Source: a virus. From it: a stretch of 64,000 nt of DNA. A program made the position numbers and the translations under genes. Below the pieces are notes generated by a model that was given only the letters and a program-made list of their open reading frames with translations, did no database searches and was not told the origin of the DNA. The stretch spans positions 32,001-96,000 of IMG/VR virus record IMGVR_UViG_3300028802_000007. The stretch is one strand, 5' to 3'. This document shows, piece after piece, positions 3,608 through 64,000 of this stretch (position 1 is its first letter; the number at the start of each line of letters is the position of its first letter).

Positions 3608-3613
3608 GCATGG

Positions 3614-3790: not shown

Positions 3791-3821
3791 GGGGTCAGAT
3801 AGGAGGGCACCCCGTAGGTGC

Positions 3822-4097
3822 TCATTCGGTCGTGGCCCAGCGGAGACCGGCCCGGTACAGAGCCCGGATGCCAGCGCCGATGAGAGCGAAGGCGGCGACC
3901 TGAGGCGTGGCAACGGCAGCGCCGAAGTCCGTGACCTGGACCGCCACGAGGGCGGCTGCGCCGGAGAGCAGCACGTCCGCGACCAGGTCCTTGATGAACT
4001 TCTTGCCGTTGAACGGAGAGACGCCGGTCCCGTCGGTCAGGACGCCGACGACAGCCCCCTGCTTCGGGGCCGGGTCAGGCAGCTTGGGATCAGGCAT
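3822..4097 (-). CDS. Holin-like membrane protein
   Basis: Two hydrophobic segments and basic C-terminus; follows the tail genes. Confidence 0.55.
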   Translation of the reverse strand: MPDPKLPDPAPKQGAVVGVLTDGTGVSPFNGKKFIKDLVADVLLSGAAALVAVQVTDFGAAVATPQVAAFALIGAGIRALYRAGLRWATTE

Positions 4098-46941: not shown

Positions 46942-47374
46942 GGTTTCGCTCCTCGGAGATGGTTGACGGCTTGCCGAAGAGGACCTGGAGACGGTCGATC
47001 AACTGCGCTACGTCTTGGGGTCGGATGACGACGAGCGGCTCTTCGACCCACTGGCCGTTGCGCTCGCGGGTGACGGTCCGCTTCATGTCGGAGCGCATCT
47101 TGCTGATGGCTTCATCGATGGCGTCGATGGCGTTGTCGCGGACCTTGACCTCTTTGGCGATCCGCCGGCCCTCGTCGTCAGCGAGGAGGGTCATGGCCTT
47201 TGACTGGGCGCGATCGCGGTAGTCCTCGCGCTTCTTGGCCCAGCCGCGCTTCTTGGACGCATCCATGATCATCGAGTGGGTGGACATGCCGTGGGAGTCC
47301 GCCAACTCGCGGAGGCTCATCTCACCCTGGATGTATTCGAGCTCGAGAGCGTCGTAGTCCCACTTTCGGTTCAA
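46802..47374 (-). CDS. terS: Terminase small subunit
   Basis: N-terminal HTH (EYIQGEMSLRELADSHGM...W); directly upstream of TerL. Confidence 0.75.
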   Translation of the reverse strand: MNRKWDYDALELEYIQGEMSLRELADSHGMSTHSMIMDASKKRGWAKKREDYRDRAQSKAMTLLADDEGRRIAKEVKVRDNAIDAIDEAISKMRSDMKRTVTRERNGQWVEEPLVVIRPQDVAQLIDRLQVLFGKPSTISEERNLGISLSSTGNDPEFLRALVEASRGRGADPGDVARSPLPRVERTRTN

Positions 47375-47706
47375 CGGATCTCCCTCGTCACCATGCCCGA
47401 CGAACCGGGGATGGAGACCACGACTTCAACGATGCGGGGGTGCTCGAGGAGGAGGCGCTCGCAGATCCACGCCGCGATGCCGTCCAGACGCTCAGAGCCG
47501 CCATAGAGCATGTCCGACAGGGTATGGAGGTGCAGCGTGCGGGTGGTCGAGTACAGGTCGTCGTACAGCGTCAGGCATGGCCCGGCTAGGTCTGCGACCT
47601 CATCGACGGTGACGGTGAAGGTGTGGCCGTGGAGGTGCGGCCCCTCGCGCTCCGTGTCCCGGTGGGTGGAGTCGAAGGTGACCGTGGCGCGGGCGGTGGT
47701 GATCAA
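47371..47706 (-). CDS. QueD/PTPS-like T-fold protein
   Basis: FDSTH...LHGHTFTVTV Zn-binding His triad; TTG start after GAGG; the catalytic Cys is not present. Confidence 0.75.
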   Translation of the reverse strand: MITTARATVTFDSTHRDTEREGPHLHGHTFTVTVDEVADLAGPCLTLYDDLYSTTRTLHLHTLSDMLYGGSERLDGIAAWICERLLLEHPRIVEVVVSIPGSSGMVTREIR

Positions 47707-47725
47707 GTTGCCCTCAGAACACACG

Positions 47726-47764
47726 AAAAAAGGGACGGGCCGACCATTGCTGATCGACCCGTCC
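47726..47764 (-). terminator. Intrinsic terminator
   Basis: GGACGGGTCGATCA-GCAA-TGGTCGGCCCGTCC followed by CTTTTTT; the GNRA loop and two G-U pairs work only on the minus strand. Confidence 0.85.
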
Positions 47765-47845
47765 ATTCGGGAACCGGAACTCGCTGCGACCTGTCTGCTG
47801 GAGGTCAACCAAAAGAGCAGGGGGCGCGAGTCGGTAAGACCCTAT
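47726..47845 (-). ncRNA. Candidate small RNA with anti-RBS loop (UGGUUGACCUCC)
   Basis: Intergenic long hairpin (ACCG/CGGT, ACTCGC/GCGAGT, CTGCT/AGCAG) followed by a terminator; the loop is complementary to the repeated GGAGGTCAACCA. Confidence 0.6.
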
Positions 47846-47888
47846 TCAGTTGTACCACGCGCACAGTACAGGGCGCGTGCTCTGTTTG

Positions 47889-48167
47889 CTAGGTGTCCCG
47901 GTCGTCTTCAGGGACGTTTGTGTCGATGAAGCGGTCGGTTTCGACGGAGTAGCGCCAGTCGATCGTGTACGCGGCAGGCGGCAGGAGGGTCACCGATCCG
48001 TCCGCCAAGACGACCACCGCCAAGAGTGTTTTGGCGGGTGGTCGCTTTTGACTATCGAACTGTTCGAGCGTGAAACCCAGAAGCATCCCGACCGGGTGGT
48101 CGGTTTCGACCGGATAGCGGTCGGGTCGGAGGGTCACCCGGAGCGGTTCATCGAAGAGAGCTGTCAC
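47889..48167 (-). CDS. Hypothetical protein
   Basis: GTGA-coupled ORF. Confidence 0.55.
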   Translation of the reverse strand: MTALFDEPLRVTLRPDRYPVETDHPVGMLLGFTLEQFDSQKRPPAKTLLAVVVLADGSVTLLPPAAYTIDWRYSVETDRFIDTNVPEDDRDT

Positions 48168-48535
48168 ATCTTCCCCTTGATGGTGAACGTGCCCTTGTCC
48201 ACCTTGTAGACCTTGTTCTTGTTGCTGAAGGACGTCACGTCCATGAAGTCGCGCTCGAACTCGATGGACACGATCTTGTCGGTCGAGATGACCAGCACGT
48301 CACGATTGGGCATCTGGATCGTGATCAGCGTTGGCGGCTCGTTCACGCTGATAGGCGAGGACTCGAGCTCGATGTGCCGCTTTGGCTTCTGCGATGGCGC
48401 GAACGTCAGACTCGTCGGGGACGGCGAGATGCGGAGCGAGTCCCGCAGGGCGTTCGACTCTCGCGTCGTGAAGCCACGACCCTTTGAAGTCCGCCCAGAT
48501 CTGGACTCCGCAGACTTGGCACTTCGAGGAGCCAT
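48164..48535 (-). CDS. Hypothetical protein
   Basis: In-operon ORF. Confidence 0.45.
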   Translation of the reverse strand: MAPRSAKSAESRSGRTSKGRGFTTRESNALRDSLRISPSPTSLTFAPSQKPKRHIELESSPISVNEPPTLITIQMPNRDVLVISTDKIVSIEFERDFMDVTSFSNKNKVYKVDKGTFTIKGKM

Positions 48536-48538
48536 GGC

Positions 48539-48751
48539 TCACCTGATCCCCGCGCACCTGGCGCACAGCAGGGGGCTCTTGATGATGTCGCCCAGGCCGA
48601 CGTAGTACAGGACCCGGCGGTTCTCGCAGGCGGAGCACTTCCCCCGGTGCTCCCTGTTGAGGCTGATGGACACGGTCATGGTCAGCGGCCCCCAGTTGGT
48701 GCTGACCGGCGACAGACCGGCGGGGACCTGGCCGGGCGCTCCGACAATCAC
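48539..48751 (-). CDS. Small zinc-finger protein
   Basis: CSAC...CARC. Confidence 0.5.
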   Translation of the reverse strand: MIVGAPGQVPAGLSPVSTNWGPLTMTVSISLNREHRGKCSACENRRVLYYVGLGDIIKSPLLCARCAGIR

Positions 48752-49050
48752 GCCTTCACCCTCGTCTTGCTGCTCTTGCGCGGGGCGGGCTTGGGCACCG
48801 CCCGGACCGGGTTGTAGGGGATGGCTGCCGGAGCTCCGGTCGCGGTCGTGATTGTCGTAGTCCCACTGGTGAAGCTATGCGTCTGCTCCAGCGGGGTGGC
48901 TGACGTGAACTTGACCTGTGGTCCCGCGATCGCTTCGCGGGCCGCATGGGCCACGAACGACGACACGCTCATGCCGTGGTCGAGGCAGTAGTGACGAAGC
49001 GATTTCCAGTCCTCGTCGTCCAGGTAAAAACTATGCTGACGGACAGTCAC
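48748..49050 (-). CDS. Ribbon-helix-helix DNA-binding protein
   Basis: HSFYLDDEDWKSLRHYCLDHGMSVSSFVAHAAREAI fits the RHH pattern. Confidence 0.65.
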   Translation of the reverse strand: MTVRQHSFYLDDEDWKSLRHYCLDHGMSVSSFVAHAAREAIAGPQVKFTSATPLEQTHSFTSGTTTITTATGAPAAIPYNPVRAVPKPAPRKSSKTRVKA

Positions 49051-49062
49051 AGGCCGTCCTCC

Positions 49063-51232
49063 TTATCTATCTTCTGCTTGGAACTGTTCGATGCCGCCGA
49101 CTGGCGGCTCGTGCTTGTCGATGTGGGTGTGCTCCTCGAGCCGCTGCACGCGGCCCTCAAGGTCTGACGTGCGGCGATCTTCGTATTCGAGGGGGCCGAT
49201 CCCACCGCCCAAGACGATGGCCTCAGGAGTCGCGCCCGGGTTCTTGGCCCACCACTCCTTCCAGTACTGGCCGATGGCGTCGAGCTGAGCTGGCGTGATG
49301 TCCGGGCCAGCGTCGAGAACGTAGCGGTCGTCGGTCAGGCGGATGAGCTTCATCACCACCCCCGCGACGGCGCGAGGAACGCGTCGTCCTTCATCTGCCA
49401 AGAACCGGTCCCACTCATGGCGAAGGCTTCGGCGTGCTTTTTGCACAGGTCGAAGTGGAGATTGGCCCCCGGGGCGTGCGGCTCCGTCAAGACCATGAAG
49501 TGATGGATCTGGAAGATGGCAGCGTCAACACAGCCCTCGACATCGCACACGAGGCTCTCGAGCTTCACGACGCGATCACCTGGTCGATGCTCTTGGTCAC
49601 GCGCTCAAGGATGGGCAGCGGGTCGATGTCTGCCTGGAGCAGCCCGAAGCCATCGAGCAGGATGTCGGCCCGCACCGACGCCCTGACCTCCTCGAGGGCC
49701 TCGCGCCTGATCTCTTCCTTGGTCTGTCGCTTAGCCACGGTTGACCTCCTTGAGCGAGTTGCGGACCTGTTCGGCTAGACCGCCGGGCTTATTGTTCTCG
49801 GTGAAGTGCCAGGCATCGACGATCGCCGGGTCCGCCTGGACCACGAAGTCGTAGAACCGCTGGTACTCAGAAGGAGTCGCGTCATGCGCCGTCGGATCGC
49901 TCTTGCCATCGCTCTTGGTCTGTCCCTCCTCGCCGCCCTCGCTCCTGTTGTCGAGGCTGGCAAGGTCTTTGGCGGAAAGGTGTTCTAGGCCCCTCTCAAC
50001 GCGAAGCCGGTTCAGGGCGCGGGTGGCGGCGATGAATGCCGCCTCCGCATCCTCCAAGTCGCGGTAGTAGCTCACGACAGCACCTCCGTCTCCATCTCGT
50101 AGCCGCAGCGTCGGCAGGGCCACGCCAGCCACTCGTGGCTGTAGGTGTCGTCGTAGCTCTTGCCCGGACGCTCGCGGATGCTCGTCTGCTCGTGGTAGCG
50201 CGGCTCGCCGCCAATCTCAGTGCCGTACATCGTCCTGATGGCCTTGAAGGCGTTCGGCTGGCCGCACTTGGGACAATCAGCCGTCGGAGCCTCGATCACG
50301 ACAGCTCCCTGATGGCGGCCTCGATGACCGCGTCGATGTCGGTGCAGAGCACGGCGTCTTCGCCAGCGGCTGGTATCACCGACGCGTTCCGCAGATCGAC
50401 CTGGATGTCGCGCAACACGGCCATGACCACGTCGGGATAGGCCTCCTTGACGTAGTCCCGACGAACGCGCAGCTTCTCTGCCGCCGACGTCGGGCTCACG
50501 CGGGCACCCACAGCACTTCCGCCACGCGACGGCGCAGCCACTGGAGGTCGGTCTCGCGACCGGTGGACTCCTCCTTCTCGCGGACCTTGGTCGGGCCGAT
50601 GGCCTTGACCGATCCGTCGGGCTTGTGGAGGTACGACTGCTCGAGGGTGTAGCTCACGCCGCCACCCATGTCGAAGGTGTTGGTCGAGTTGATGATGTCG
50701 CCCGTGTAGGTCTGGGCGTTGCTGGTCACGACGTGCGAGCCCATGGCGCGATCGGGCATCAGCCACGAACGGTTGGCGTCACCGAAGGCGGTCACCTCGA
50801 TGGCCCGGCCCTCCATCGGCGTATGGAGTTGGGTGGCGAGCTCGTGCTCGAGTTCACGCCCGCTCAACTTGCTGTACTGGCGACGCTGTTCGGGCGTCAT
50901 GCCAACACCGTCCCCCTTCATACCGGCACCCAGCTCACTTCAGAGATGCGCCGCTTGAGCCATTGCATCTCGGTCTCGGGCCGCTCCTTCTTCACCTTGG
51001 CGGGTTTCGCCGGAGGGAAGTAGGGCGCGTCCATGAAGTAGGCGTCGCCGTATGAGGTCGGCCAGACGGTCACGGTGTTGCTGGCGGTGACGTAGCCGGT
51101 GGTGGTCGATGCGTTGGTGATGGTCCCCGTTTGGTAGATGGGCACGCCCAGGCTCCTCCGATACTCGTTGACGGTCATGTAGGTGCCCGGGACGAGGCGG
51201 TAGTCGTTCTCGTCCCGGTCACCCCATTCCAT
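49063..51232 (-). other. Run of translationally coupled small hypothetical genes (49063-49356, 49353-49568, 49565-49738, 49731-50075, 50072-50299, 50296-50499, 50496-50921, 50918-51232)
   Basis: Mostly GTGA/ATGA stop-start overlaps; several CxxC proteins. Confidence 0.6.
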
Positions 51233-51234
51233 CC

Positions 51235-51759
51235 CTAGACGGCGGTCTTGGACGACTTGGTGGTGGTCGTCCGGTCCGTGATCTGGCGATCGACGGTGAC
51301 CGTCGGGAGGCGCTCGAGGATCTGGCCCATCAGGTCCTTGAGGTAGCCGACCTCCTGATTGAAGCGGGCCTCGCGGAAGTCCATCTCCTTCTTGAACGCC
51401 TCGCGCTCCGTGGCGAGGTTCTCGGTCTTGACCTCGAGGACGGCCTCCTTGCGGGCCTGCTCGATACCGGCGAGGGCCTGCTCAGCCTCGAACTCCTGAC
51501 GCTTGCGCTCGAGGCCGACCATGTGGGTCACCTCGCGCTTCTCGCGTGCGTTCGTCTCGACGATCCGGTCCTTGTCGATGTTCAGCTTGGCGATCTGCTC
51601 GCGGAGGACGTTCGCCTCCGTGGTGAGCTCCGTCTCCTTGCCACGCGCCTTGAGCGTCGCCTCGAGCTTGGCGATCTGTGCCGTCAGGTCGAGGACGGTG
51701 TCGGTGAGCTGCGCCTCCAGCGCCTCGCGCTTACTCGGTGTGCGATCGAAGATGCCCAT
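51235..51759 (-). CDS. Coiled-coil protein
   Basis: GGAGGTCAACCATG start; E/K/R-rich heptads. Confidence 0.7.
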   Translation of the reverse strand: MGIFDRTPSKREALEAQLTDTVLDLTAQIAKLEATLKARGKETELTTEANVLREQIAKLNIDKDRIVETNAREKREVTHMVGLERKRQEFEAEQALAGIEQARKEAVLEVKTENLATEREAFKKEMDFREARFNQEVGYLKDLMGQILERLPTVTVDRQITDRTTTTKSSKTAV

Positions 51760-51813
51760 GGTTGACCTCCCTTTCGGATGAGTCTGCCGCGACCGGCGGC
51801 CCGGGTTCTTGCC

Positions 51814-51960
51814 CTAGGTGATGAGCTTGGCGAGCAGGAGCACGCCGAAGCCGACGATGGCGGACCAGCCGACCATAGACTGGCCCTGGCTGCGGAACTC
51901 CTCGACAACGGCCAGGAAGACCGCCACGAGCAGGCCAAGGATCACGATGGTGTCGTTCAC
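51814..51960 (-). CDS. Small two-TM protein (48 aa)
   Basis: Read manually; GGAGG RBS. Confidence 0.5.
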   Translation of the reverse strand: MNDTIVILGLLVAVFLAVVEEFRSQGQSMVGWSAIVGFGVLLLAKLIT

Positions 51961-52082
51961 GGGAACCTCCAACTATTCGCCCCGCTCCCCCAAGCCATCT
52001 CGCTGACCAGGGCCGGCTAAGCGCGAGAGCCATGCCTTCGCCTCAGGGCGTCGTCGTAGCCTAGTACCACAGTGTCATGCGG

Positions 52083-53570
52083 TCAAGACGGCTCTCCCGC
52101 CGTCTCGGTGTCAGGGGATCGGAGACGTTGCGCGGTGATGTGCATCTGGCCGATACGTTCCGCCGACAAGCCGCAGTCGGGGCATGTCTCGGTGTCAGGG
52201 GAGCGGAGGGCGGCGTACTCGCGGGCGAGCAGCGTGATACGCCCGTCGTTCGGCTCGATGGGTGCGAACGCCTTGCTCCATGCCCGGGCCAGCCGCTCCA
52301 CATCGAGCGGTGCCGCTTCTGCTGCGACATGGTACGAGAGTGAGTTTGTCAACCGCGTGACGTAGGGTGACCCGCCGGACGGTGCATCGAGCGGTGCCGC
52401 TTCTGCTGCTGCGAGGGCGGCACGGAGCAACCGCAGAACCTCGGAATGGTGGTACTGGCCGACCGACTCCCCGCGACCGATGGCCGACTCCACCGACATC
52501 AACAACGGCTCGAAGTGGTAGCGGTCCTCGGGCGTCATCGCCAACCTCCGCGCAGCGTGCCGACGGCGACCCATTCGGGGCCAGCGCCGAGGTCCAGACG
52601 TACCCAGACGACCATGATTAGGTAGCCGGTGAGATCGCGCCCCGGTCGTATCTCTGCTTTCACGTCGTCTCCTCGGTGTCAGGGGATCGGAGGGCGGCGT
52701 ACTCGGCGAGCAGCGCCGTCACGAACGCGGCGGCGTTGTAGCGGTCAGGTTCCCATCGGTTCGGGTTCGTCTCTGCGACGAGGACCGCCCATGCGTTCGT
52801 CATGGTCCGAGCATCGAGCGGTGCCGCTTCTGCTGCTGCGTGTCTATCACTGTGTCCCGCTGGCAGGTCACACAGAGCGACCGTAGCGCGGCACTTCGGA
52901 ACCTCTTGCGCCCGCAGCGCGGGGTCGGTCATCGGTCGTTCCTCCAGCCGTGATGCCACATCTCCCTCGCGGCCATGTACACCCCCGGAGCTGAGGCGAT
53001 GCAGAAGAAGACGAAGAAGGTCCAGATCGGGACATGGACCCACCAGAAGGCGAAGCCCGCAGCAAGCATGAACGGCCAGGAGATGACCGCAGCCAGCATC
53101 ACCCTGTCAGTCATGCTCGACCCCCATATGCACCAGCCTCGCCACGATCTCCTCGGCACAGACCATCGACCTGTTCAGACCGATGCCGTGCTCGCGCAGG
53201 ATGGCGGCGGCCTCGCGCACTTGCAGTTCACGACGACGGAGCCTGCGCTCGACGTCCTTGCACAGATGTGGCTGCACCTGGGCCGACATATGCACCTCAG
53301 CTCCGCACCTGACGCAGTAGCGCATCGGGTCTCTCACCACAGCCTCCGCCTCTTCGTCTGTGGGAGGGGCATATGGAACCTCTCCCAGCGGTTCCGAAGA
53401 TCGGCCATCCGACGATCCCACTCAGGCGTGTGAGCCACACCCTCCTTCTGCCTCTCGAGATAACGCGCCAGCAAGTCAATCTCCCTGTCCGTCAACGGCC
53501 CGCGTTCGGTGTACGGAACATCATCTGGGTCCACCGGCGGCCTGTACTGGCGCGAGATCTCATCAGTCAT
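52083..53570 (-). other. Small early genes (52083-52538, 52660-52932, 52929-53114, 53107-53337, 53334-53570)
   Basis: Coupled ORFs downstream of the leftward promoter. Confidence 0.55.
52102..52840. repeat. Two interspersed 23-35 bp repeat families, three copies each
   Basis: CTCGGTGTCAGGGGA(T/G)CGGAG near 52102, 52186, 52672; CATCGAGCGGTGCCGCTTCTGCTGC near 52301, 52385, 52812. Confidence 0.9.
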
Positions 53571-53592
53571 GGGTTGACCTCCTTCTCGCCGT

Positions 53593-53621
53593 AGCATCGT
53601 GGGTTGGTACTAGGGTGTCAA
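53593..53621 (-). promoter_or_regulatory. Leftward sigma70-type promoter
   Basis: TTGACA-17 nt-GATGCT. Confidence 0.6.
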
Positions 53622-53873
53622 GGGCATATGGTGGTGGGTGGATGGATGGTTGTATGTGGTCGTATGCGAGATTTTGACCTCGCTCGACGCCGGGACAAGG
53701 CTCGCGGGAAGCGAGCGACCGGGGGGGGGCCGCCGGTGCCCAGCATGCCCTACAGGGCCTCTAGGATCAACGGAGACGGCTTCGGCCTCCACTGTGCGGA
53801 GAGGAGCCCGGTGTGACACCCTCCGGGCGACCTGGGGGCTCCTAGGCCCCTTGTAGGCGATATAGCTCTGGCG

Positions 53874-53926
53874 GCTACCGTAGCATGCTACGCCTACCGT
53901 AGCAGGTGCTACGCAAGGTGCTACGG
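53874..53926. repeat. Clustered GTAGCA/TGCTAC repeats (operator- or iteron-like)
   Basis: GCTACCGTAGCATGCTACGCCTACCGTAGCAGGTGCTACGCAAGGTGCTACGG. Confidence 0.65.
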
Positions 53927-54105
53927 CGACCGCTGCGCTCCACTCAGCAGGATCAAACTCAGGCCCCTCCGCGAGGGTGCCGTCGGGGTAGCAACCTAGG
54001 AGCACTCTGGGTCGCGGCGACCTAGCAGCCTGACCCTCGTGAGGGCGGTCTGCCCCCGCGTCCCAGATCGACCTTGGTGACCCACCGTCACGAGGAGCGC
54101 CGTGC

Positions 54106-54135
54106 TTGACACCCCTGCCGTCCATCCCCGATACT
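54106..54135 (+). promoter_or_regulatory. Rightward sigma70-type promoter
   Basis: TTGACA-18 nt-GATACT. Confidence 0.6.
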
Positions 54136-54180
54136 GGTCGCAGACACCCCCTGTGCTGGGGTGACGCATGGAGGTCAACC

Positions 54181-54898
54181 ATGACTCACAAGGCCCGTGT
54201 TATCGCGGCGAGCAAGGCCCGTCGCTACCCACCCTGCGACGACTGCGGCAAGGTCGTCGCCCTTGAGGGTCACGCCTGTGACCTCAAGCCCCTCGCCCGA
54301 TGACCGCCATCCTCGACGCCATCGACCGCCTCCCGACCATGGTCTGGGCGCTGGTCGTCATGCTGTCGGCGTGGGCCATCATCGCCTTCGCCTTCGCCCT
54401 GATGGTCGGCACCTACCTCGCCATCGGCGAACTGGTCGCGGCATGACCACCTACAACGCAGCCTCCATCAACTGCGAGTGCGGACACCCGGGCATCGACG
54501 GCCACAACATGCGGCAGTCGCCCCCGGAGTGCCTGACCCCCGGCTGCATCTGCGGCCTGTACGGTGCCACCGCTGACGGCTCGTCCGTCCATCGCGTGGG
54601 CCGCTGGGTGGTCCGCATCGCCCCTGAGCCCGCCGACCTCTATCTGGGGACGGATCGGACTTGGACCCGCGAGCGGGCGACCTACGAGACGGGCACCATC
54701 GTTGAGGTCTACGACGCCAAGTACGTCGAGGGCTTCACCCCTCTGGGCCAGTTCGTCACCGCCTACGGTGCCCGGACCCTGACCGACTCAGCCGTCGGTC
54801 GTGGCACAGGGCTCATCCTCGACGGCGGTATCCCGGCATGGCGCATGAGCGCCGATGAGTTCACCACCGTCCTAGGGCTCATCGCCCGCTGGGGCTGA
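54181..54898 (+). other. Three small early genes (54181-54303, 54300-54446 TM, 54443-54898)
   Basis: GGAGGTCAACCATG start; ATGA overlaps. Confidence 0.6.
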
Positions 54899-54951
54899 CC
54901 CTCACGGGTGCCCCCCACTGGGAGGCACCAGCGAGCGCCAGACAGGCACTC
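54895..54951 (+). repeat. Structured intergenic element, copy 1
   Basis: CTGACCCTCACG-GGTGCC..GGCACC-AGCGAGCGCCAGACAGGCACTC. Confidence 0.95.
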
Positions 54952-54968
54952 AGGTAGCAGGAGGAAGC

Positions 54969-55562
54969 ATGAAGGTCTTGGTCGTCTGTGAGTACAGCGG
55001 GCGCGTCAGGGACGCGTTCAGGGCTGAGGGGCACGAGGCCATCTCGTGCGACCTCCTGCCCACTGAGGTCCCCGGGCCTCACATCATCGGGGACGCCCTT
55101 GAGGCGATCCGCGCTGAGAAGCCCGACCTCCTCATCGCCCACCCGCCCTGCACCTACCTCGCCAACTCAGGCGTCCGGTGGCTGTACGGCGGCAAGGGCA
55201 CCACCATCGACCCGGTCCGCTGGGCGCAGATGGTCGAGGGCGCGGCCTTCTTCAAGGCCCTCCTCAACGCCGACGTCCCGATGGTCGCGGTCGAGAACCC
55301 GGTGATGCACGGCTTCGCCCGGGACCTCATCGGCCAGCGGGCCAACCAGTTCATCCATCCGTGGCAGTTCGGCCACGGCGAGCAGAAGTCCACAGGGCTC
55401 TGGCTCCGTGGTCTGCCCCTCCTGACCCCGACCGACGTGGTCGAGGGCCGGGAGCAGCGGGTCTGGCGGATGGGTCCGTCGGCTGACCGCTGGAAGGAAC
55501 GCAGCCGCACGTTCAGCGGCATCGCGGCTGCCATGGCAGCCCAGTGGGGAGGTCAGCGATGA
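54969..55562 (+). CDS. Short C5-cytosine DNA methyltransferase-like protein
   Basis: VVCEYSG (atypical motif I), AHPPC (IV), VENP (VI). Confidence 0.75.
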   Translation: MKVLVVCEYSGRVRDAFRAEGHEAISCDLLPTEVPGPHIIGDALEAIRAEKPDLLIAHPPCTYLANSGVRWLYGGKGTTIDPVRWAQMVEGAAFFKALLNADVPMVAVENPVMHGFARDLIGQRANQFIHPWQFGHGEQKSTGLWLRGLPLLTPTDVVEGREQRVWRMGPSADRWKERSRTFSGIAAAMAAQWGGQR

Positions 55563-55828
55563 CTGAGGACATCAACGCCATCCGGGCGAGGAACGAGGCC
55601 AACCGCGAGGCCCACAGGGTCGCGGCGCTGGCACGGCAGGAGGCCTACCGGGCCTCCCCTGAGTACAGGGAGGCCAGGTTGGCGCGGATCAACTCTGGCC
55701 TGTGCGTCATCGATGACGACCAGTGCGTCACCCACGGGGTCCCCGGCGACTTCGGCCACTACCTCGACACCCGCCCCGCTGAGGACCGGGGCCACAACCC
55801 GGTCAGCGGCATCGCCTACAACGACTGA
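55559..55828 (+). CDS. Hypothetical protein
   Basis: GGAGGTCAGCGATG start; stop lies inside element 2. Confidence 0.6.
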   Translation: MTEDINAIRARNEANREAHRVAALARQEAYRASPEYREARLARINSGLCVIDDDQCVTHGVPGDFGHYLDTRPAEDRGHNPVSGIAYND

Positions 55829-55880
55829 CCCTCACGGGAGCCCTGACCTCAGGGCTCCAGCGAGCGCCAGACAGGCACTC
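55825..55880 (+). repeat. Structured intergenic element, copy 2
   Basis: Central stem GGAGCCCTGA/TCAGGGCTCC. Confidence 0.95.
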
Positions 55881-55895
55881 AAGAAGGAGAAGAGC

Positions 55896-56255
55896 ATGGC
55901 ACTCACCAAGTCCGATCTGGAACGGGCCATCGAGGACGAGCGCCGTCAGGGCACCGTCGGATACAACGAGGGCGATGGCCGCAGCCAGCGGCTCCGGGCC
56001 AAGGGCGCGACCATCGTGGTCCGCGAGGCCAACGCCAAGGGCTGGTCGTACGACGACCTCGTCCTCTGGGTGGACTCCAAGTACGGGCGCTGGTTCTGGG
56101 ACAGCCTGTACGGCTGCGACGACCCTGAGGGCGCGGCCCGGGCGGTCACCCTCGACTGGGTCGAGCCCGGGGAAGGCGACTACGTCTACGACCCGACTCC
56201 CTACACCGTGGCGGTCGCCCGCAGTGGTGAGTGGGGCTCGCAGCGACCTCGCTGA
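55896..56255 (+). CDS. Hypothetical protein
   Basis: AAGGAG RBS; stop lies inside element 3. Confidence 0.65.
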   Translation: MALTKSDLERAIEDERRQGTVGYNEGDGRSQRLRAKGATIVVREANAKGWSYDDLVLWVDSKYGRWFWDSLYGCDDPEGAARAVTLDWVEPGEGDYVYDPTPYTVAVARSGEWGSQRPR

Positions 56256-56309
56256 CCCTCACGGGAGGCCCACGAGCTTGGGCCTCCGGCGAGCGCCAGA
56301 TGGGCACTC
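56252..56309 (+). repeat. Structured intergenic element, copy 3
   Basis: Central stem GGAGGCCCA/TGGGCCTCC. Confidence 0.95.
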
Positions 56310-56323
56310 TAGAAGGAGAACAG

Positions 56324-56919
56324 ATGGACAGCCAGAACGGAGTCTCCGCTCTGATCCTGACGCCTCAGGACCGTCGCGACCTACAGGCCGCACTGGTCGA
56401 GGCCATCGACACCGCCGACACGACGGCGGACTACAACAGCCCTCAGGTCGCCCGCTGGGTGGCCCTCATCAACCTCATCGAGGAGGGCAACAAGTGAGCA
56501 CCGGAGCCGACTGCCAGTTCAAGGAGGTCACACCGGGCCGCTGGTCGTACGCCCTTCAGGAGTGGCCCTACGGCGACTCGAACGAGTACACCTCGTACGG
56601 ACCCTTCGCCTCGTTCGCGATCGCGCGGGACCACCTCGACCAGAACCACGCCAACCCGGGCGGCTGGATGACCACCATCCATCCGACAGGCCACGTCCAC
56701 GAGTGGACGACCGACCGTGGTGCCTACGTCCCGGCGGGCGTGGTGGTCACCATCCGCGTCGAGTCGCTGGGTCAGGACCCGACGCCTGAGGCCCTCCTGA
56801 AGTTGATCACCAAGAAAGGTGCCCTGACCACTGACCACCTCAGCATCAGGCCTGAGACGCGCTACGACATGAACGCCAAGGTCACGTCCTGCGAGTCCTG
56901 CAACCAGCAGAAGCCCTGA
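56324..56919 (+). other. Two hypothetical genes (56324-56497, 56494-56919)
   Basis: RBS; GTGA overlap; second stop lies inside element 4. Confidence 0.6.
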
Positions 56920-56972
56920 CCCTCACGGCTGGCCCCCACTGGGAGCCAGCAGCGAGTGCCAGATGGGTGCTC
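56916..56972 (+). repeat. Structured intergenic element, copy 4
   Basis: Central stem GCTGGC..GCCAGC; second stem GAGTGCC/GGTGCTC. Confidence 0.95.
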
Positions 56973-56991
56973 TAGCAACAGGAGGTCAACC

Positions 56992-57788
56992 ATGGCAAGC
57001 AAGTACCCCGACGTCGGGTCCTACAAGGCCTCGCCGGACAACCGCGACATCGCCCGTCGGGTCGAGTGCGACTTCGTCGCCAGCGGATCGGGCTCCTACT
57101 ACAGCCGCGCATGCTCCAACCTCGCGGCGTGGGTCAGGGTCTACCGCCACAAGGACGGCACGGTCACCACGACCAGCGACCTCCGGTGCCACCGCCACCG
57201 CGCCATCGATGAGCGCACCGCCACCAACCGCAAGTGGTCGAGCCAGTTCAACGCCGACGGCTCGTCCAACCTCATGTTCCCCCAGTTCGACCCGTTCGAC
57301 GGGATGGCTGCGGCCAAGCGTCTGATCCGCGAGGAACAGGCCAGGTTGCAGGAGGCCCGCCTCGCGGCCATCAGCGAGAAGGTCGCGGAGGCCGCCGCCT
57401 ACATCACAGCCCACATCGTCGGGCTGGACGAGGAGACGGTCGGCTCCCTCAACGCCATCCACGCCATGGCGACCCTTGGAACGCTGGTGGTCCGGTGACC
57501 GCCGAAGAGGTCAGGGCTCGCTACCTCATCAGCGAGGCAGCTTGGGCGACCATGCGGGCGGTGACGCTCGAGGTCCACGACGTCACAGGCGAGGTCGTGG
57601 CCCTCGCCGTCCGGGGCGTGCCCTCGTTCTCAGAGCCTCAGGGCGAGGACAGCGACGAGTTCTTCTACGACGTGGACTGGCTCCAGTGGTTCAAGTTCGC
57701 CTACCCCGGTCGGAGCATCGTCGGGTCGATGGCTCCCGTTGATCAGGACACGGAGGAGGCGTTCGTCTGGTTCATCGCTCTGGACTGA
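56992..57788 (+). other. Two hypothetical genes (56992-57498, 57495-57788)
   Basis: GGAGGTCAACCATG start; second stop lies inside element 5. Confidence 0.65.
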
Positions 57789-57839
57789 CCCTCACGGCTG
57801 GGGCTGACGGCCCCAGCAGCGAGTGCCAGATGGGCGCTT
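57785..57839 (+). repeat. Structured intergenic element, copy 5
   Basis: Central stem GCTGGGGC/GCCCCAGC. Confidence 0.95.
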
Positions 57840-57859
57840 GGGATCGCAGGAGGTCAACC

Positions 57860-58246
57860 ATGGACAAGGCACAGGTCAAGGTCATCCACGAAGAGGTCAG
57901 CGAGGCCATCAGGACCGTCTACGCCAAGCACGGCCTGACCATCACCAGCGACCGCGCCTCCTACGGCGAGGCGGAGTTCAACATCAGCGTCAAGGCCATC
58001 AGCACCAAGGCTGAGGATCAGGCCAAGACGTGGGCACAGTACGCACCGGTCTACGGCCTCCCCGTCGATGGCTTCGGTCAGTTGGTCACCATCAACCGCC
58101 AGCAGTACGTCATCACCGGGCTCGACCTGAACCGTCGAGGCTACGTCGTCCGGGTGAAGAACCTAGGCACCGGCAAGGTCAGCCTGTTCAAGGCCGATGC
58201 GATCCGGCGGGCACTCGCCCTCATCGACATCAGCAGCCCCGCCTGA
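57860..58246 (+). CDS. Hypothetical protein
   Basis: GGAGGTCAACCATG start; stop lies inside element 6. Confidence 0.7.
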   Translation: MDKAQVKVIHEEVSEAIRTVYAKHGLTITSDRASYGEAEFNISVKAISTKAEDQAKTWAQYAPVYGLPVDGFGQLVTINRQQYVITGLDLNRRGYVVRVKNLGTGKVSLFKADAIRRALALIDISSPA

Positions 58247-58299
58247 CCCTCACGGCTGAGGCCTCGCCGGCCTCAGCAGCGAGCGCCATGTCGGCACTC
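58243..58299 (+). repeat. Structured intergenic element, copy 6
   Basis: Central stem GCTGAGGCC/GGCCTCAGC. Confidence 0.95.
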
Positions 58300-58317
58300 A
58301 AGTACAGGAGGTCAACC

Positions 58318-59513
58318 ATGAGCCCCATCGAACTGGCAGAGCGTCTGGGCCAGAGCCCCGACCTCGACAACCGGGCAACAGGTGTCGCCATCATCGTGCG
58401 CGGCCTGTGCGACGACGACGGCGATCGCATGGGCTGGCCGATGACCGCAGCGGTCGTGGCCCGTGCGGCCAAGCACATCGGTGTCGAGCCCACAGCCGAG
58501 CTGGTGGAGGCGGTCCTCGAGCTCGCCCCGATCCTGCCCGACTTCTACCTCAACCGATGATGAACGACGTCAGCCTGGTCGGGCACTGCCCGGACTGCGA
58601 CTTCAACCTCGACGGCGGTGGCAACGAGGACTGCGAGACGTGCGCCGCAGAGCCCGCCTTTGTCACCGTGGTCGAGGCGGTGGACCGCGACATCGTCGTG
58701 GTCATCATCGCCTTCGACTCAGGCCGCGACCTCAAGGACAACCGCATCCTCAACTACCTCGTGGATCGGTGGCCGAACCACCGACCTCTGGCCGTCCAGA
58801 TGGACGGCTCCGTCATCACCGTGACCGACGCCGGGTTCGTCGCCATCCTCGACCTGAACATCGGAGGCTGACGTGCCTGACCGCGAGGAGCTCCCGGCTG
58901 GCCCGACCAACGCTGCCGCTGAGGTGTGGTACGAACTCCAGCGGCGCATCCAACAGCATCTACCTGTACCTGGGGTTGACACCCCGGCGGCCAAGCCTCA
59001 GACTCACGAGGTGAGGTCAACCGACGAACTCGAAGACGAGCCCGTGTGCGAGCACGTCCACGTCGAGAAGGACGACGACGGCGAGTTCGCCCGCCGGTTC
59101 TTCTGCCTCGACTGTCAGCAACAGGTCGTCCCGGGCGAGCCCGACGAAGACGGCGAGTCATTCTGGGAGGAGGTCAACTGATGCCCATCATCATCGACGG
59201 CAACGTCACGGTCAGCGTCAAGACCCTCAAGATGCACGAGGGTCACGCCATCAAGGTCCACACCATCGACGGTCGGACGGGCCTGTACTGCGTCGATGAC
59301 GGCATCATCGAGCAGGAGCCCAAGCCCTCCACCTCGCTGTGGTGCGGCTGCCCGGATCGGGCCGAACATGACGAGGGTGTCGCCCTCCAGACCCAGTTCC
59401 GCAAGCAGTACCGCATCCCCAAGTCGTCGTGCGTCGGCTGCTATCTGGGCGACGACGGACCGTCGATGCACTCCTGCTACATCCACGCAGAGAAGGATTG
59501 GCCCACAGCCTGA
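58318..59513 (+). other. Four small hypothetical genes (58318-58560, 58557-58871, 58873-59181, 59181-59513)
   Basis: RBSs and overlaps; several Cys/His motifs; last stop lies inside element 7. Confidence 0.6.
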
Positions 59514-59570
59514 CCCTCACCCCAGCCGCTGATTGACCCAGCGGCTGGAGCGAGCGCCAGATTGGCACTC
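59510..59570 (+). repeat. Structured intergenic element, copy 7
   Basis: Central stem CCAGCCGCTG/CAGCGGCTGG. Confidence 0.95.
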
Positions 59571-59588
59571 ATCAACAGGAGGTCAGCC

Positions 59589-60155
59589 ATGGCCGAAGCC
59601 ACCATCACCTACAAGGTGCCTCACTTCAAGGGCACAGCGGCACTCGACCGCTACGGCGACTACGACGGCAACGTCCTGCTCCAGGCACTGGTCAGCGGCG
59701 ACGGACCGGCGGTGGATCAGTTCCTCGCGGAACTCGCCATCAAGCAGAACGAGGAGTTCGACCGGACCGACGCCCGGTACGCCTATCAGGCCAAGGTCAT
59801 CGAGGCCATCGACCCAATCATCGCAGCGACCAGCCTCACGGGCTTCAAGGCCTACGCCAACACCGACCCCAAGACGCGCTACCGCCGACCGAAGATCACC
59901 AAGGAGGGCGAGGGCTGCCAAGCTGGCTACTGCGACCTCGCGGCCAAGTACCGGCTGCCCGATCCGCAGGAAGGCAACGACTGGGAGGCCTACACCCTCG
60001 CGTGCCAGAAGCACGCCATCAAGAGCATCAACAGCCGCGCTGACTTTGTGGCGAAGGGTGGGGTAGCGCCTCTCCGTCACGTCTACCTGACCAGCGACCA
60101 GCATCGCACCATCACTGATGCGATCCGCGAGGGCCTCAAGACCGTCAAGGCCTGA
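59589..60155 (+). CDS. Hypothetical protein with Cys/His cluster
   Basis: GGAGGTCAGCCATG start; stop lies inside element 8. Confidence 0.7.
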   Translation: MAEATITYKVPHFKGTAALDRYGDYDGNVLLQALVSGDGPAVDQFLAELAIKQNEEFDRTDARYAYQAKVIEAIDPIIAATSLTGFKAYANTDPKTRYRRPKITKEGEGCQAGYCDLAAKYRLPDPQEGNDWEAYTLACQKHAIKSINSRADFVAKGGVAPLRHVYLTSDQHRTITDAIREGLKTVKA

Positions 60156-60208
60156 CCCTCACGCCAGCCCCCGGGCCGGGGGCTGGAGCGAGCGCCAGAC
60201 TGGCACTC
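60152..60208 (+). repeat. Structured intergenic element, copy 8
   Basis: Central stem CCAGCCCCCG/CGGGGGCTGG. Confidence 0.95.
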
Positions 60209-60223
60209 AACAAGGAGGTCGCC

Positions 60224-60583
60224 ATGGGCATCACCTACGAAGAGGTGGACAAGTACTGGGACTCGACCATCGCCCGCCTCAAGGCGGAGTTCCCGGCGGA
60301 GTGGAGCATCACCGGCTACAAGGGCCATGGCACCCGCGACGGCGTGGCCTGGGTCGCCAAGCTGCGCCGCAACGGCAAGGTCGTCGGCTCTCTCGAAGAC
60401 TCCGGTGTCGGTGGGTCGGTCTTCATCGACTTCTGGACGAAGGTCGGCAACTCCATCGACTACGGCCACAACAGCGAGGACGCCAAGGCGTGGGCCGCTG
60501 CGATCGCAGCCGCGCTGCCCGACGAGAAGATCGAGCCTGACCAGATGGTCATCGAGGCCCTCCTCCAGCGAGCCGGCAAGTGA
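60224..60583 (+). CDS. Hypothetical protein
   Basis: AAGGAGG RBS. Confidence 0.7.
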   Translation: MGITYEEVDKYWDSTIARLKAEFPAEWSITGYKGHGTRDGVAWVAKLRRNGKVVGSLEDSGVGGSVFIDFWTKVGNSIDYGHNSEDAKAWAAAIAAALPDEKIEPDQMVIEALLQRAGK

Positions 60584-61272
60584 AGGTTCTCGACCTCTAC
60601 TCCGGTCTGGGCGGCTGGTCACAGCCAGCCCTCGACGCCGGTCACGAGGTGGTCAGGGTCGAGTGGGACAAGCGCCTCGCGGCTGAGGTGCCCAACACCA
60701 TTCAGGCCGACATCACCGAACTGACGGCGACCGATCTCCTCAACATGTGCGACGGCAAGCCCGACCTGATCCTCGCCTCGCCTCCCTGCGAGTCGTGGTC
60801 GGTCATGGTCCTGTCACGCAACTGGTTCCCCGACTACACACCCAAGAGCCAGCGTGCGGTCGAGGCCATCCTCATGGTCAGCCACACACTGGAGTTGATC
60901 CACCAGCTCGACCCTGCCTTCTGGGTCATGGAGAACCCACGCGGCATGATGCGGAAGCATCCGGTGGTCGCCGGGCTGGAGCGTCGGACCATCACCTACT
61001 GCCACTACGGCGAGCAGCGCATGAAGCCGACCGATCTGTGGTCGGACCGCTGGCCCGCCAGCCTCACCCTCGCACCGGCGTGCAAGAACGGCGACCCCTG
61101 TCACGTCCGCGCACCTCGCGGCTCGATGACCGGGACCCAGGGCATGAAGGGCGACCGCAACGGCTACTGGACGAAGTCCCTCATCCCGTACCCGCTGGCA
61201 CGCGACGTCACCGACGCCGTCTGCCGCGACCTAGAGGCGGGCCACGTCGGCTCCAACCTCACGCTCTGGTAA
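60580..61272 (+). CDS. Short C5-cytosine DNA methyltransferase
   Basis: LDLYSGLGG (I), ASPPC (IV), MENP (VI). Confidence 0.85.
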   Translation: MKVLDLYSGLGGWSQPALDAGHEVVRVEWDKRLAAEVPNTIQADITELTATDLLNMCDGKPDLILASPPCESWSVMVLSRNWFPDYTPKSQRAVEAILMVSHTLELIHQLDPAFWVMENPRGMMRKHPVVAGLERRTITYCHYGEQRMKPTDLWSDRWPASLTLAPACKNGDPCHVRAPRGSMTGTQGMKGDRNGYWTKSLIPYPLARDVTDAVCRDLEAGHVGSNLTLW

Positions 61273-61283
61273 GGAGGTCAACC

Positions 61284-62307
61284 ATGGCTATCACGATGCG
61301 CTCGTCTGATCGCGCTGAGGTCATCCGCGAGATGGCCCGGGAGCTCCTCGCGAAGGCGGACTTACTGGACGGCACCTCGCCGTGCGTCTGCGGACACCTC
61401 CGCCAGAACCACGATCCGGCGGGCTGGAACGAGGGCTGGTGCAGCGGTGCCCAGACCACGCGGCGACCCAAGAACCAGATCATCGCCGCCGACGGCGACT
61501 GCAAGTGCGAGGAGTTCGAGGCATGGTGAGAGAGCGAACACTGGCTGAGTACCGCGAAGCGATGGCCGCAGACAGCAACGCCTCGTTCTACGAGGAGCGC
61601 CGCCTCAACTTCCTGATCCTCGCCCTGCCTGACGGCCACCTTGGCACGGGGGAGATTGTCAGCGTCTCCTTCCGCGAGGGCATCGACTTCATCGATGAGG
61701 ACTGGCCTGAGTTCGGCAACTTCCTCATCTTGGAGACGGCATGAAGACCAACGGACCGAAACTCGTCGGTGACTGGCGTCGCCGTCGCGGCTCCAAGACC
61801 GACGCCCACCTGTTCGACGGATCGGGGCACCACCCGTTCGACCAGCGACCGATGTGCGGCAAGGCCATCCGCCACATGAGCACCGAACCGGCGACGCTCT
61901 GGACGGGCACGCCCATCAGCCGGTCAGGCTCGTTCTGGGCGCTGCCCTGCACGGAGTGCCTCGTTCAGGCCATCACCCGCCAGCGCAAGGAGGTCAACCA
62001 TGCCTGAGACACGACGCATCAAGGCCACCTACTACCCGGTGCGCCAAGCACACCCACGCCGGACCGACTGGGCCAGGGTCGCCCTGTTCATCGCTGGCGG
62101 CATCGTCGCCGCGATCGCGGTCTGGGCCTTCGTCGCCCTGTTCCTCGTGACGTTCTGATGTGCGGCAGGGAGGACGACCCGTCCATGACTGACGTCTGCA
62201 CCCGCTGCGGGCATCCCGCCACCGACCATGGCGGCGGCCCCGGCGAGGGCGAGTATCCCGATCTGCCGTGCGACTGCGGCTGCGACCGCTGGACGGAGGA
62301 GGGCTGA
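61284..62307 (+). other. Small hypothetical genes (61284-61529, 61523-61744, 61741-62007, 62000-62158 TM, 62185-62307)
   Basis: RBSs and overlaps; CxCxH motifs. Confidence 0.55.
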
Positions 62308-62711
62308 TGCCAGCCATCGACATCCCGGCGGAGATGCCCCAGCTCAAGGGCCTGTTCGTGGGCGGCTGCGTCGCTCGAGGAGACGGCTCCTCGTTCCGGG
62401 CTCGAGCTCACGCCCACACCTTGCCCAGCGACTACAAGGGCTGGGTCTGCGTCAGGGCAGCACATCGCGTGCTCACGCCCTCAGGCCGGCCCTCCCGTCT
62501 GATGTGGCACGAGTACGCCCACATCACCACCGGTCACGGACATGACGCCGTCTGGCGCGAGCGGATCACGGAGTACGGCTTCCCGGCGGAGGCCCACCGG
62601 TACATCAGGAAGAAGAGGCCGCCGCTCGTCTGGTATTGGTATGACCCCGCCACTGGCGAGCGCCAGACGGGTGCCCACCGCGAGATGGTCGCAGCACTGA
62701 GAGGAAGGTAG
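62307..62711 (+). CDS. SprT-like HExxH zinc metallopeptidase
   Basis: WHEYAHITTGHGHDAVW. Confidence 0.65.
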   Translation: MPAIDIPAEMPQLKGLFVGGCVARGDGSSFRARAHAHTLPSDYKGWVCVRAAHRVLTPSGRPSRLMWHEYAHITTGHGHDAVWRERITEYGFPAEAHRYIRKKRPPLVWYWYDPATGERQTGAHREMVAALRGR

Positions 62712-62713
62712 AC

Positions 62714-62899
62714 ATGGACATCACCGCGCTCATCATCGAGCTGGTCCAGGTTCGCGAGGTCTTCGGTGACCTCGAGGTCATGGTGGCACTGGAGCAGACA
62801 GGCGACGAACCTGTGACCGATGTCATCGTGCTGCCCGCCGACAAGCAGTTCCGCCGCGTCGTCAAGATCGCGGCGCTGGGAAAGCGTGACAACGCCTAG
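62714..62899 (+). CDS. Hypothetical protein
   Basis: GAGGAAGG RBS. Confidence 0.55.
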   Translation: MDITALIIELVQVREVFGDLEVMVALEQTGDEPVTDVIVLPADKQFRRVVKIAALGKRDNA

Positions 62900-62915
62900 G
62901 CCACGGGCCTATACT
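62886..62915 (+). promoter_or_regulatory. Possible promoter
   Basis: GTGACA-18 nt-TATACT upstream of AAGGAGG. Confidence 0.45.
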
Positions 62916-62937
62916 CACCAAAGGAGGTCAACACAGA

Positions 62938-63754
62938 GTGGACGAGAAGCCGGATCAACCACCCCCGAAGCGGTTCTGGAGGGTCACCTTCTGGACTGCC
63001 GACGGGTCTGAGCACCGCCGCTACATCCGCTGCCCGTACGCATCGCCTGACTCGCTCGTCGGCGTGTCGGCCAGGCTGGGCGAACTGATGTGGGACGGCA
63101 TCATCACCAGCTACCGCCTCAGCCCTGTCCCATCGGCCCGTGTCGCGGTCGTCCGTGACCGGTCCGTCCGCTGGAGCGAGGTCGAAGCGACCCTCGCCGC
63201 CTAGGAGACACCATGCTTATCGCACTGTTCATCACCGGCATCCTGATGTACATCATCGGCTCACGTCTCGACAAGGGCGAACGCCGCAAGCGCGAACGTG
63301 AGATCGACCTCAAGTACGGCCACACCGCCGACGGTCGCCCCCTCGAGCGACGCCGATGAAACGATCCTACTCAACCATGGCCCGTGAACTGGGCATCAAG
63401 CTGTGCGGCGGTGTCCGGCCTACCGGACACTACTGCGAGCTCGACCACCAGCGATGGGGCGCGTCTGAGCCGGGCCTCGTCCACATGGCCGACGTGCGCG
63501 TCACCAAGGCCGGCCTCGCCCGGTTCTTGGGTCACGCCGCGATCGCGCTCGACCCGAGCATCAACGACGAGGTCCCGTGGCGACGCGTCTACCGTCGGCA
63601 GATCGCCTCTCGCGATCTGGCCCGTCGGCTGCATGTCCGCATGCCCGGTCGCGAGTTCTACGACTTCGACCGGTCGTTCGTCCTCGCCAGTGTGGCGTCC
63701 ATCCCGAACGGCGAGCCTCTTCGGAAGCAAGCCTTCGACTGGGCCCGGCGGTGA
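62938..63754 (+). other. Hypothetical genes (62938-63204, 63213-63359 TM, 63356-63754)
   Basis: RBSs; ATGA overlap. Confidence 0.55.
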
Positions 63755-64000
63755 GTGATGCGATCCGCCGACGTGTTCCTCATCGCCGGGGCGCGGCTGC
63801 GGCTACCGATGGTGCCTCATGTCCGCCACGGGGCTGGCCTGATCAACTATCGGGAAGGCGCACGCATCGTCCTGAACTCGTACGTCGAGCCGGGGCCGTG
63901 GTGGGAAGTTGAGTGCGTCACCCCGGACCGTCCGCTGGAGGGCCAACGCATCGAGCATGACTGGCCCGGGTTCATCTACGGCCCGGCAACGGGCCTCAAG

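Follow-up and report, generated by a model that had tools for sequence, protein, structure and literature searches.

A recurrent hairpin module between the early genes of soil phages: a candidate mark of RNA punctuation at which gene cassettes are exchanged

Why should a phage repeat one structured element, again and again, in the gaps between its early genes? The question is raised by a 64,000-nt stretch of DNA (the window), which comprises bases 32001–96000 of the 130,935-bp IMG/VR virus record IMGVR_UViG_3300028802_000007 (G000), from an uncultured soil phage of 65.6% G+C. Eight copies of a hairpin-bearing element occupy stop-to-start gaps of a rightward early operon in the window, one every 0.4–1.3 kb and in a single orientation. 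An original prediction, made from the letters of the window, had offered two readings of these elements, a gene-cassette shuffling system that is not an integron or a set of sites for RNA processing or stabilization. We find that early gene cassettes are exchanged at the elements and that type II hammerhead ribozymes hold the same position in related early regions. By analogy with these ribozymes we propose, at a probability of about one half, that the elements are intercistronic modules of an early polycistronic messenger RNA (mRNA) and most likely sites at which the transcript is cut.

Each unit opens with the TGA stop of the upstream gene. A G+C-rich hairpin comes next, then the block RGCGAGYGCCA and a second, small inverted repeat (GAGYGCC-N5-GGYRCTC), and an AGGAG-type ribosome-binding site (RBS) leads to an ATG; every copy is on the strand that codes for its neighboring genes. 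What is conserved as one unit is the stretch from stop to start as a whole, which measures 69–82 nt in 25 of the 29 copies for which a start was found. The predicted positions are exact: the window contains the 11-mer CTGACCCTCAC at the eight predicted starts, on the + strand, and nowhere else; the whole record has 13 forward and no reverse occurrences, and a backwards control pattern occurs nowhere in it. As had also been described, in all eight cases the TGA of the element is the stop codon of the upstream open reading frame (ORF; Table 1), and an AGGAG-type RBS and then an ATG follow. The intervals between successive elements hold 2, 1, 2, 2, 1, 4 and 1 small genes, within the range of one to four first given. 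DNA methyltransferase genes lie within the array, and among ten cassette proteins tested nine have no Pfam family and eight no PHROG. An extended RBS motif, GGAGGTCAAC(C)ATG, stands before many early genes, with or without an element (56975–56994, 57845–57862, 58305–58320, 61270–61286 and 61988–62002).

Within the element, constancy of sequence and constancy of structure are found side by side. Two arms, TGACCCTCAC and GCGAGYGCCA, clamp the hairpin and are fixed across 30 aligned copies apart from two variant copies; about 22 nucleotides are fixed, beside a stem that covaries freely. The two arms complement each other imperfectly and form, together with the stem, a hairpin of 21–24 positions whose lower half is fixed in sequence and whose upper half is free to covary. 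In the upper stem 8 of 9 pairs are changed on both sides, 92.8% of the cells are paired and none of 500 shuffles reaches the score (31 rows were counted, including one reverse-strand artefact), which agrees with the earlier description of a central stem that varies in sequence yet stays base-paired. Its fourth pair is always G-C, and its third is A-U or U-A in 28 of the 31 rows. Three variant copies keep or even improve the pairing of the lower stem, namely the copy with a TAG stop, L241b, with a double change from U-A to C-G, and L180, whose arms form 9 of 10 Watson-Crick pairs on either strand. The long hairpin is real. Over its 19 pairs the top strand has 80.9% of the cells paired, with a low predicted probability for the lower stem. 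A second hairpin of 7 bp (hairpin 2) follows downstream in most copies.

The two strands do not fold alike. Three positions of the arms never pair on the top strand (A.C, C.Y and A.C), whereas both A.C mismatches read G.T on the bottom strand, and across 30 elements standard pairs fill 270 of 300 arm cells on the bottom strand versus 209 of 300 on the top. In DNA folding of the eight elements of the window, every bottom strand gives one and the same complete hairpin, with two fixed 1x1 mismatches, and exceeds the top strand in stability by 3.2–6.8 kcal/mol; preferential folding of the bottom strand had been part of the original prediction. The upper stems are without strand bias, with 9 G.U pairs on the top and 12 on the bottom strand. 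This asymmetry could be the simple result of A.C having been chosen as the non-pair, or it could point to a role at the level of DNA.

A covariance model (CM) built from 18 copies finds exactly 14 strong copies in the whole record (64–77.5 bits), the eight in the window scoring 66–77.5 bits, while the next match on the + strand reaches 23.9 bits and lies inside an ORF. The latter is an exact match to the right-arm block GCGAGCGCCAGACGGG alone, at window positions 62656–62671 without left arm or hairpin, and is probably due to chance or a remnant. Comparison of the record with itself shows 407–56368 to be colinear with 75349–130935, at about 65–86% identity and an offset near 75 kb. On this evidence the record is about 1.75 tandem units of two related but diverged phage genomes and, although listed as 100% complete, probably an assembly chimera; a gene 6 copy of 99% identity on a 73,912-nt contig is consistent with a unit of about 74–75 kb. 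The window covers the early region of genome copy B. Genome copy A carries six elements, at genome positions 12432, 12876, 13305, 14873, 16205 and 16840; in the last of these TAG replaces TGA at the same position, and one of the six upstream genes in copy A stops at a TAG 4 nt ahead of the TGA of the element.

The search of related contigs with a covariance model that the original prediction had suggested yields at least 17 further copies outside the record. The total of at least 31 consists of the 14 in the record, three with near-identical stems in a complete 47-kb phage (G001) and one in a fragment (G002), both found by exact-pattern scan and model score, 12 in metagenome loci and one diverged copy in a provirus fragment (L180). 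The metagenome copies lie in 9 of 119 loci among the matches listed. Loose scans of IMG/VR gave 190 loci, of which 189 were scanned with the model and held real copies only in L098 and, diverged, in L180; the remaining locus, L123, was scanned with the model separately. Among the matches listed in bacterial genome contigs there was no real copy in 120 loci, all of which scored below 32 bits and concerned other genes. Neither 7 kb nor a single element found a relative among GenBank and cultured phages by megablast or blastn, and the TerL protein is at most 28% identical to that of any GenBank phage. Two candidate copies, L238 (36.2 bits) and L250 (27.6 bits), were rejected, the matches being starts of a coding gene. 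On the reverse strand of L123 a perfect 14-bp hairpin, whose 3' half holds the left-arm motif GACCCTCAC, lies at about 11438–11485, some 460 nt away from the canonical element there. In L233 (about 782–830) and L324 (about 1866–1914) an extra perfect 13-bp hairpin stands between element and RBS, with 138–139 nt from stop to start.

With two genome copies in one record, the locus provides a built-in comparison of natural relatives, and this comparison bears directly on exchange. Numbering the cassettes in each copy from its first element, A1 corresponds to B5, A3 has the B2 gene first plus the B1 methyltransferase, and A4–A6 match B6–B8; cassettes B3 and B4 are absent from copy A, and A2 is unique. 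The nucleotide match between A1 and B5 begins 5 nt before one element and ends past the next. In a contig from an independent soil run (X2), 55824 is followed directly by 56252, and the 427 nt missing between them are precisely cassette 2; since the 16 letters common to elements 2 and 3 within which the joint falls are too short an overlap, the joint is not a k-mer assembly artefact. Two metagenome contigs, L237 and L333, have in common an element in which, stem included, about 2 of about 85 positions differ by our reading of the alignment; the genes on both sides are unrelated, and similarity returns at the next RBS. On a larger scale, G000 and G001 are alike in having the element and homologues of gene 2 and of gene 6, with almost no other protein in common. 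Judged by the similarity of the stems, the element follows the downstream gene in these exchanges. Some mosaic breakpoints fall at plain gene starts without an element, and the methyltransferase of copy A is joined to its neighbor through a GTGA overlap.

It had been proposed to ask whether gene gain, loss and reordering break at the elements, and in copy A against copy B, in the X2 contig and in L237 and L333 they do. Early ORFan cassettes are shown to be gained, lost and permuted at the elements. In a contig from another run (X4), element 3 is replaced by 38 nt with an ATGA stop/start overlap and genes 3 and 4 abut. A loose end from run X4 at 56998 continues into gene-16-like sequence; its reading as a recombinant was rejected, gene 16 being outside the stretch compared and the match probably being through the common RBS motif only. 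In a contig of run X1 (depth 4.5), 60533 is joined back to 54383 with one letter between, a joint that encloses the whole array with neither end at an element. A circle or a tandem copy would give such a joint, as would a different arrangement in a co-occurring relative.

The window had been said to hold no recombinase, and the same was found when the search was widened to the record, in which there is no match to Phage_integrase (PF00589; the control matched 14 of 14 genomes), to Resolvase (control working) or to the Y1 HUH family Y1_Tnp (PF01797; the control matched 6 of 14 genomes). Among the 59 early and middle ORFs, matches were confined to nine Pfam families, and no recombinase, HUH enzyme or RNase is among these. 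The record does encode, in adjoining genes, a PD-(D/E)XK nuclease (PDDEXK_1) and an ERF annealing protein (L468:2550–3254 and 3085–4053; genome 97550–99053). This pair is enough to explain recombination between repeats, and the agent of exchange is probably either the pair or host recombination. A DnaB-like AAA_25 protein and a Ro60/TROVE protein are encoded farther along. Of the cassette-shuffling reading, then, the breaks at the elements stand, but a dedicated integron-like system finds no support, with no recombinase, no attC cores and some breakpoints free of elements. Cassette swapping would instead be a by-product of repeated homology, as has been proposed for the spacers of T4-type phages called PeSLs, and diversification of the stems may limit deletions between direct repeats in a phage with recombination genes of its own.

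Evidence on function comes from phages in which other RNAs stand between the genes. A third phage, G003, came to light when the gene-6 family was aligned; the model finds no element in it at E ≤ 1. Its early region has two structured spacers that belong to the Rfam family Hammerhead_II (RF02276; Table 1), both of which run from the upstream stop codon, or the bases beside it, to the RBS, and the second is directly upstream of the gene-6 homologue, the place that element 4 takes in the window. G001 combines three elements and one type II hammerhead in the same phage. For prophage hammerheads, Perreault et al. (2011, PMC3088659) describe ribozymes that flank single genes or short gene blocks and cleave polycistronic RNA, with cleavage of transcripts of about 2 kb in vitro and one set flanking an anti-restriction gene. 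G001 and G003 also have in common a conserved structured spacer of about 180 nt (L098 about 4574–4750, L475 about 1494–1690), upstream of the gene-6 homologue in one phage and downstream in the other. This spacer matches no Rfam family and no tRNA, and may represent a third sort of punctuation RNA.

Each module fills the whole gap from a stop codon to the next RBS, and we suggest that the long early transcript would be cut at the modules, either by a sequence-specific nuclease of host or phage with the fixed lower stem as its recognition site, or through self-cleavage. Gene-sized messages that start and end in protective hairpins would result, as they do from clustered hammerheads and the RNase III sites of T7, and the element would do the job of the hammerheads at the same seams. 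As a side effect, the 20-odd fixed nucleotides, repeated in one orientation, also serve as crossover points. Because about 22 nucleotides are invariant beside a covarying stem, sequence-specific recognition or catalysis is favored over a plain stability hairpin. Of the two functions first put forward, RNA processing or stabilization is the better supported, with hammerheads in the same stop-to-RBS niche. A specific and rather improbable form of this proposal is that the element is a new class of self-cleaving ribozyme. In that event catalysis would reside in the fixed lower stem, with its two A.C and one C.Y, and the covarying hairpin would act as a scaffold, and soil phages would use the element interchangeably with type II hammerheads on their early messages.

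Several observations weigh against transcript cutting. Cleavage is argued by analogy, and the equivalence of niche comes from one gene family (gene 6) and one genome in which both RNAs occur. At the junction of genes 3 and 4 the element is dispensable, as the X4 contig shows. Hairpin 2 is missing in copies of the L098 and L311 types, and the constant core is for that reason limited to arms and stem. Folding of the mRNA strand predicts a weak lower stem, with a pair probability of at most 0.35 in 12 of 13 copies (the row for genome position 16840 being left out), and hairpin 2 competes with it and usually wins (probability above 0.5 in 10 of the 13). ViennaRNA gives no credit to A+.C wobble pairs, and the pairing predicted for this weak lower stem may be understated. 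Folding is better on the bottom strand in all eight elements, an asymmetry for which a function at the mRNA level does not account. A pseudoknot partner for the variable loop does not rise above shuffles (3.47 versus 3.42 downstream, 3.27 versus 3.10 upstream). Finally, Rfam has no match at E ≤ 1 in 50000–64000 and none at gathering score in 93 kb of the record, and one element searched at E ≤ 10 gave generic miRNA-hairpin matches only; with no attC cores and no coinciding terminator, the motif lies outside the Rfam, attC and terminator families, a membership that the original prediction had named as the finding that would speak against it.

One rival reading is a passive boundary resembling a PeSL, which attenuates transcription or stabilizes the upstream message without cleavage, uses its arms for a binding factor and has recombination as its main evolutionary role. 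The conservation of the whole stop-to-ATG gap with stem-loop and RBS fits such a boundary, as do the ORFans that the elements flank near the start of the early operon and the indels and replacements at the elements, which match what Arbiol et al. (2010, PMC2839356) and Comeau et al. (2014, PMC4122927) set out for PeSLs. We nonetheless consider it unlikely: passive homology leaves the 20-odd invariant nucleotides beside a covarying stem unexplained, diversification of the stem shortens homology instead of keeping it, and there is no sigma-70 promoter and no T-run after the hairpin. Three promoter-like sites were found in 47000–64000, none inside an element, and five terminator-like sites, none at an element, where RGCGAG and no T run follows the hairpin. 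With no sigma-70-like and no hairpin-plus-T-run site in any element, a promoter or classical terminator was rejected. Hairpin promoters for a virion RNA polymerase, as in N4, were dropped as unsupported; PF00940 gave no match, as did its control (0 of 14), searches with the giant ORFs against Pfam, PHROGs and PDB sequences gave no sign of an RNA polymerase, and the sigma-factor families PF04542 and PF08281 have no match in the record.

Another rival reading is a site acting in DNA, where the folded bottom strand, as single-stranded DNA or a cruciform arm, would be the substrate of a dedicated but unrecognized recombinase or nickase in an attC-like cassette array. The complete bottom-strand hairpin with its two fixed mismatches and its extra 3.2–6.8 kcal/mol in 8 of 8 elements speaks for such a substrate, the bottom strand pairs 9 of 10 arm positions in all 30 elements, pairing being kept in two variant copies, the X2 joint lies within the 16-nt left arm, and the array has its members in one orientation, contains no promoter and lies beside a promoter-like site. 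Against this reading, an A.C on one strand is automatically a G.T on the other; the central stems are unbiased (9 G.U top, 12 bottom), and L180 pairs equally well on the top strand. Moreover, the record has no Phage_integrase, Resolvase or Y1_Tnp and its 59 ORFs no recombinase-like family, G000 and G001 have the element in common but not a candidate enzyme, and hammerheads hold the same niche on the mRNA strand. We regard a DNA-level site as improbable.

Equally doubtful, in our judgment, is translational coupling, in which the left arm that overlaps the stop codon would pair with the downstream Shine-Dalgarno (SD) region until the terminating upstream ribosome frees it. Minimum free energy folds do pair UGACC(C)UC with GGAGGUCA in copies that have that RBS, with a mean pair probability above 0.5 in 6 of 13 copies. 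GGTCA follows the SD sequence in only 14 of 30 elements, however, while the left arm is invariant in all and is kept even in the L098, L311 and L237 types, which have AGGAGAC, and the same RBS motif stands before genes without an element. Least probable is a selfish miniature palindromic element, REP- or MITE-like, spreading among the intergenic gaps of phages: the same element does lie between unrelated genes and in otherwise unrelated phages, separates a given pair of genes in one strain but is lacking there in another, and has three copies with near-identical stems in G001, but the X4 junction has neither target duplication nor clean insertion boundary, the record has no Y1 HUH transposase (PF01797) to act as a REP/RAYT partner, and the one orientation and exact stop-codon-to-RBS placement of every copy fit selection for expression.

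Table 1. Coordinates of the elements, of the promoter candidate at the head of the array operon and of the hammerheads (window positions unless a locus is named; element scores from the CM)
Feature	Position	Strand	Score (bits)	End of upstream ORF	ATG	Remarks
Element 1	54895..54968	+	72.7	54898	54969	Between 233-aa ORF and DNA methyltransferase gene; contains arms, variable hairpin, hairpin 2 and RBS
Element 2	55825..55895	+	75.9	55828	55896	Left end of the 427-nt cassette absent in the X2 contig
Element 3	56252..56323	+	72.5	56255	56324	Right end of the X2 joint
Element 4	56916..56991	+	69.2	56919		Directly upstream of gene 6 (56992-57498)
Element 5	57785..57859	+	66.7	57788		Heads the gene 8 cassette, which is the first cassette of genome copy A
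Element 6	58243..58317	+	66.1	58246	58318	
Element 7	59510..59588	+	72.6	59513		Orthologue of copy-A element 16205, stems similar
Element 8	60152..60223	+	77.5	60155		Orthologue of copy-A element 16840 (TAG for TGA)
Sigma-70-like promoter candidate	54106..54135	+				TTGACA-18-GATACT; consensus scan 10/12; head of array operon
Hammerhead_II	L476 (G003) 402-470		51.7			Gathering score 37
Hammerhead_II	L476 (G003) 932-999		37.6			Gathering score 37
Hammerhead_II	L473 (G001) 3868-3938		53			Starts inside TAG stop

That phage operons are punctuated by structured or self-cleaving RNAs is already known, ribozyme-punctuated operons having been described since 2011, and so is the shuffling of cassettes at conserved spacers. 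The motif itself is absent from Rfam and was not found in the related literature, in which no search was aimed at the motif sequence itself. With at least 31 copies, about 22 invariant nucleotides, a covarying stem, no Rfam entry and a place in the hammerhead niche, it is a concrete candidate for the bench. The independent soil samples add natural evidence that such spacers are seams for the exchange of early genes, those for host takeover and anti-restriction, and thereby link RNA punctuation to the modular evolution of phage genomes.

Among known systems, the attC sites of integrons have the core sites R''/R', RYYYAAC and GTTRRRY. The element resembles attC in its co-oriented promoterless cassettes, imperfect inverted arms, variable center and better folding of the bottom strand. 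It differs in having no such cores, as had been noted at the outset (the arms read TGACCCTCAC and GCGAGYGCCA in 29 of 30 aligned copies), and no IntI, in its symmetric 1x1 mismatches where attC has extrahelical bases, and in going with the downstream gene, as judged by stem similarity. The intercistronic RNase III signals of T7 and T3 are irregular hairpins of about two helical turns between early genes, just after stop codons, with the lower stem more conserved. The element resembles them in its place, in its predicted irregular hairpin and in the greater conservation of the lower stem, but that stem keeps one invariant sequence in phages that are unrelated, and its pairing in the mRNA is predicted to be weak.

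T4-type PeSLs, as described in PMC2839356 and PMC4122927, are likewise stop-to-ATG spacers with stem-loop and RBS among early ORFans, at which insertions, deletions and replacements break and for which no dedicated recombinase is identified there. A PeSL carries a strong sigma-70 promoter, which the element does not, and the element has in addition invariant arms, a covarying stem and a different phage lineage (TerL ≤28%). In mycobacteriophages, Pope et al. (2011, PMC3203893) define the Cluster K SAS as a 13-bp RBS-containing sequence, GGGATAGGAGCCC, and the ESAS as imperfect inverted repeats with 17-bp arms and a 4–13-bp spacer, and PMC7953290 reports Cluster M repeats CR3 and CR4 with stem-loops, of which inserted genes bring a copy. 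Like these, the element is an intergenic repeat of one orientation before the starts of non-structural genes; its sequence is unrelated to SAS/ESAS as there described, its RBS motif is another one and its arms of 10–11 nt surround a palindromic spacer of about 16–30 nt. The proposed function is parallel to that of the clustered hammerheads. The element has neither a hammerhead core nor an Rfam match and forms a single long imperfect hairpin in place of a three-way junction, but like the clustered hammerheads (RF02276; PMC3088659) it is an RNA module that flanks variable genes, in one orientation, from stop codon to RBS.

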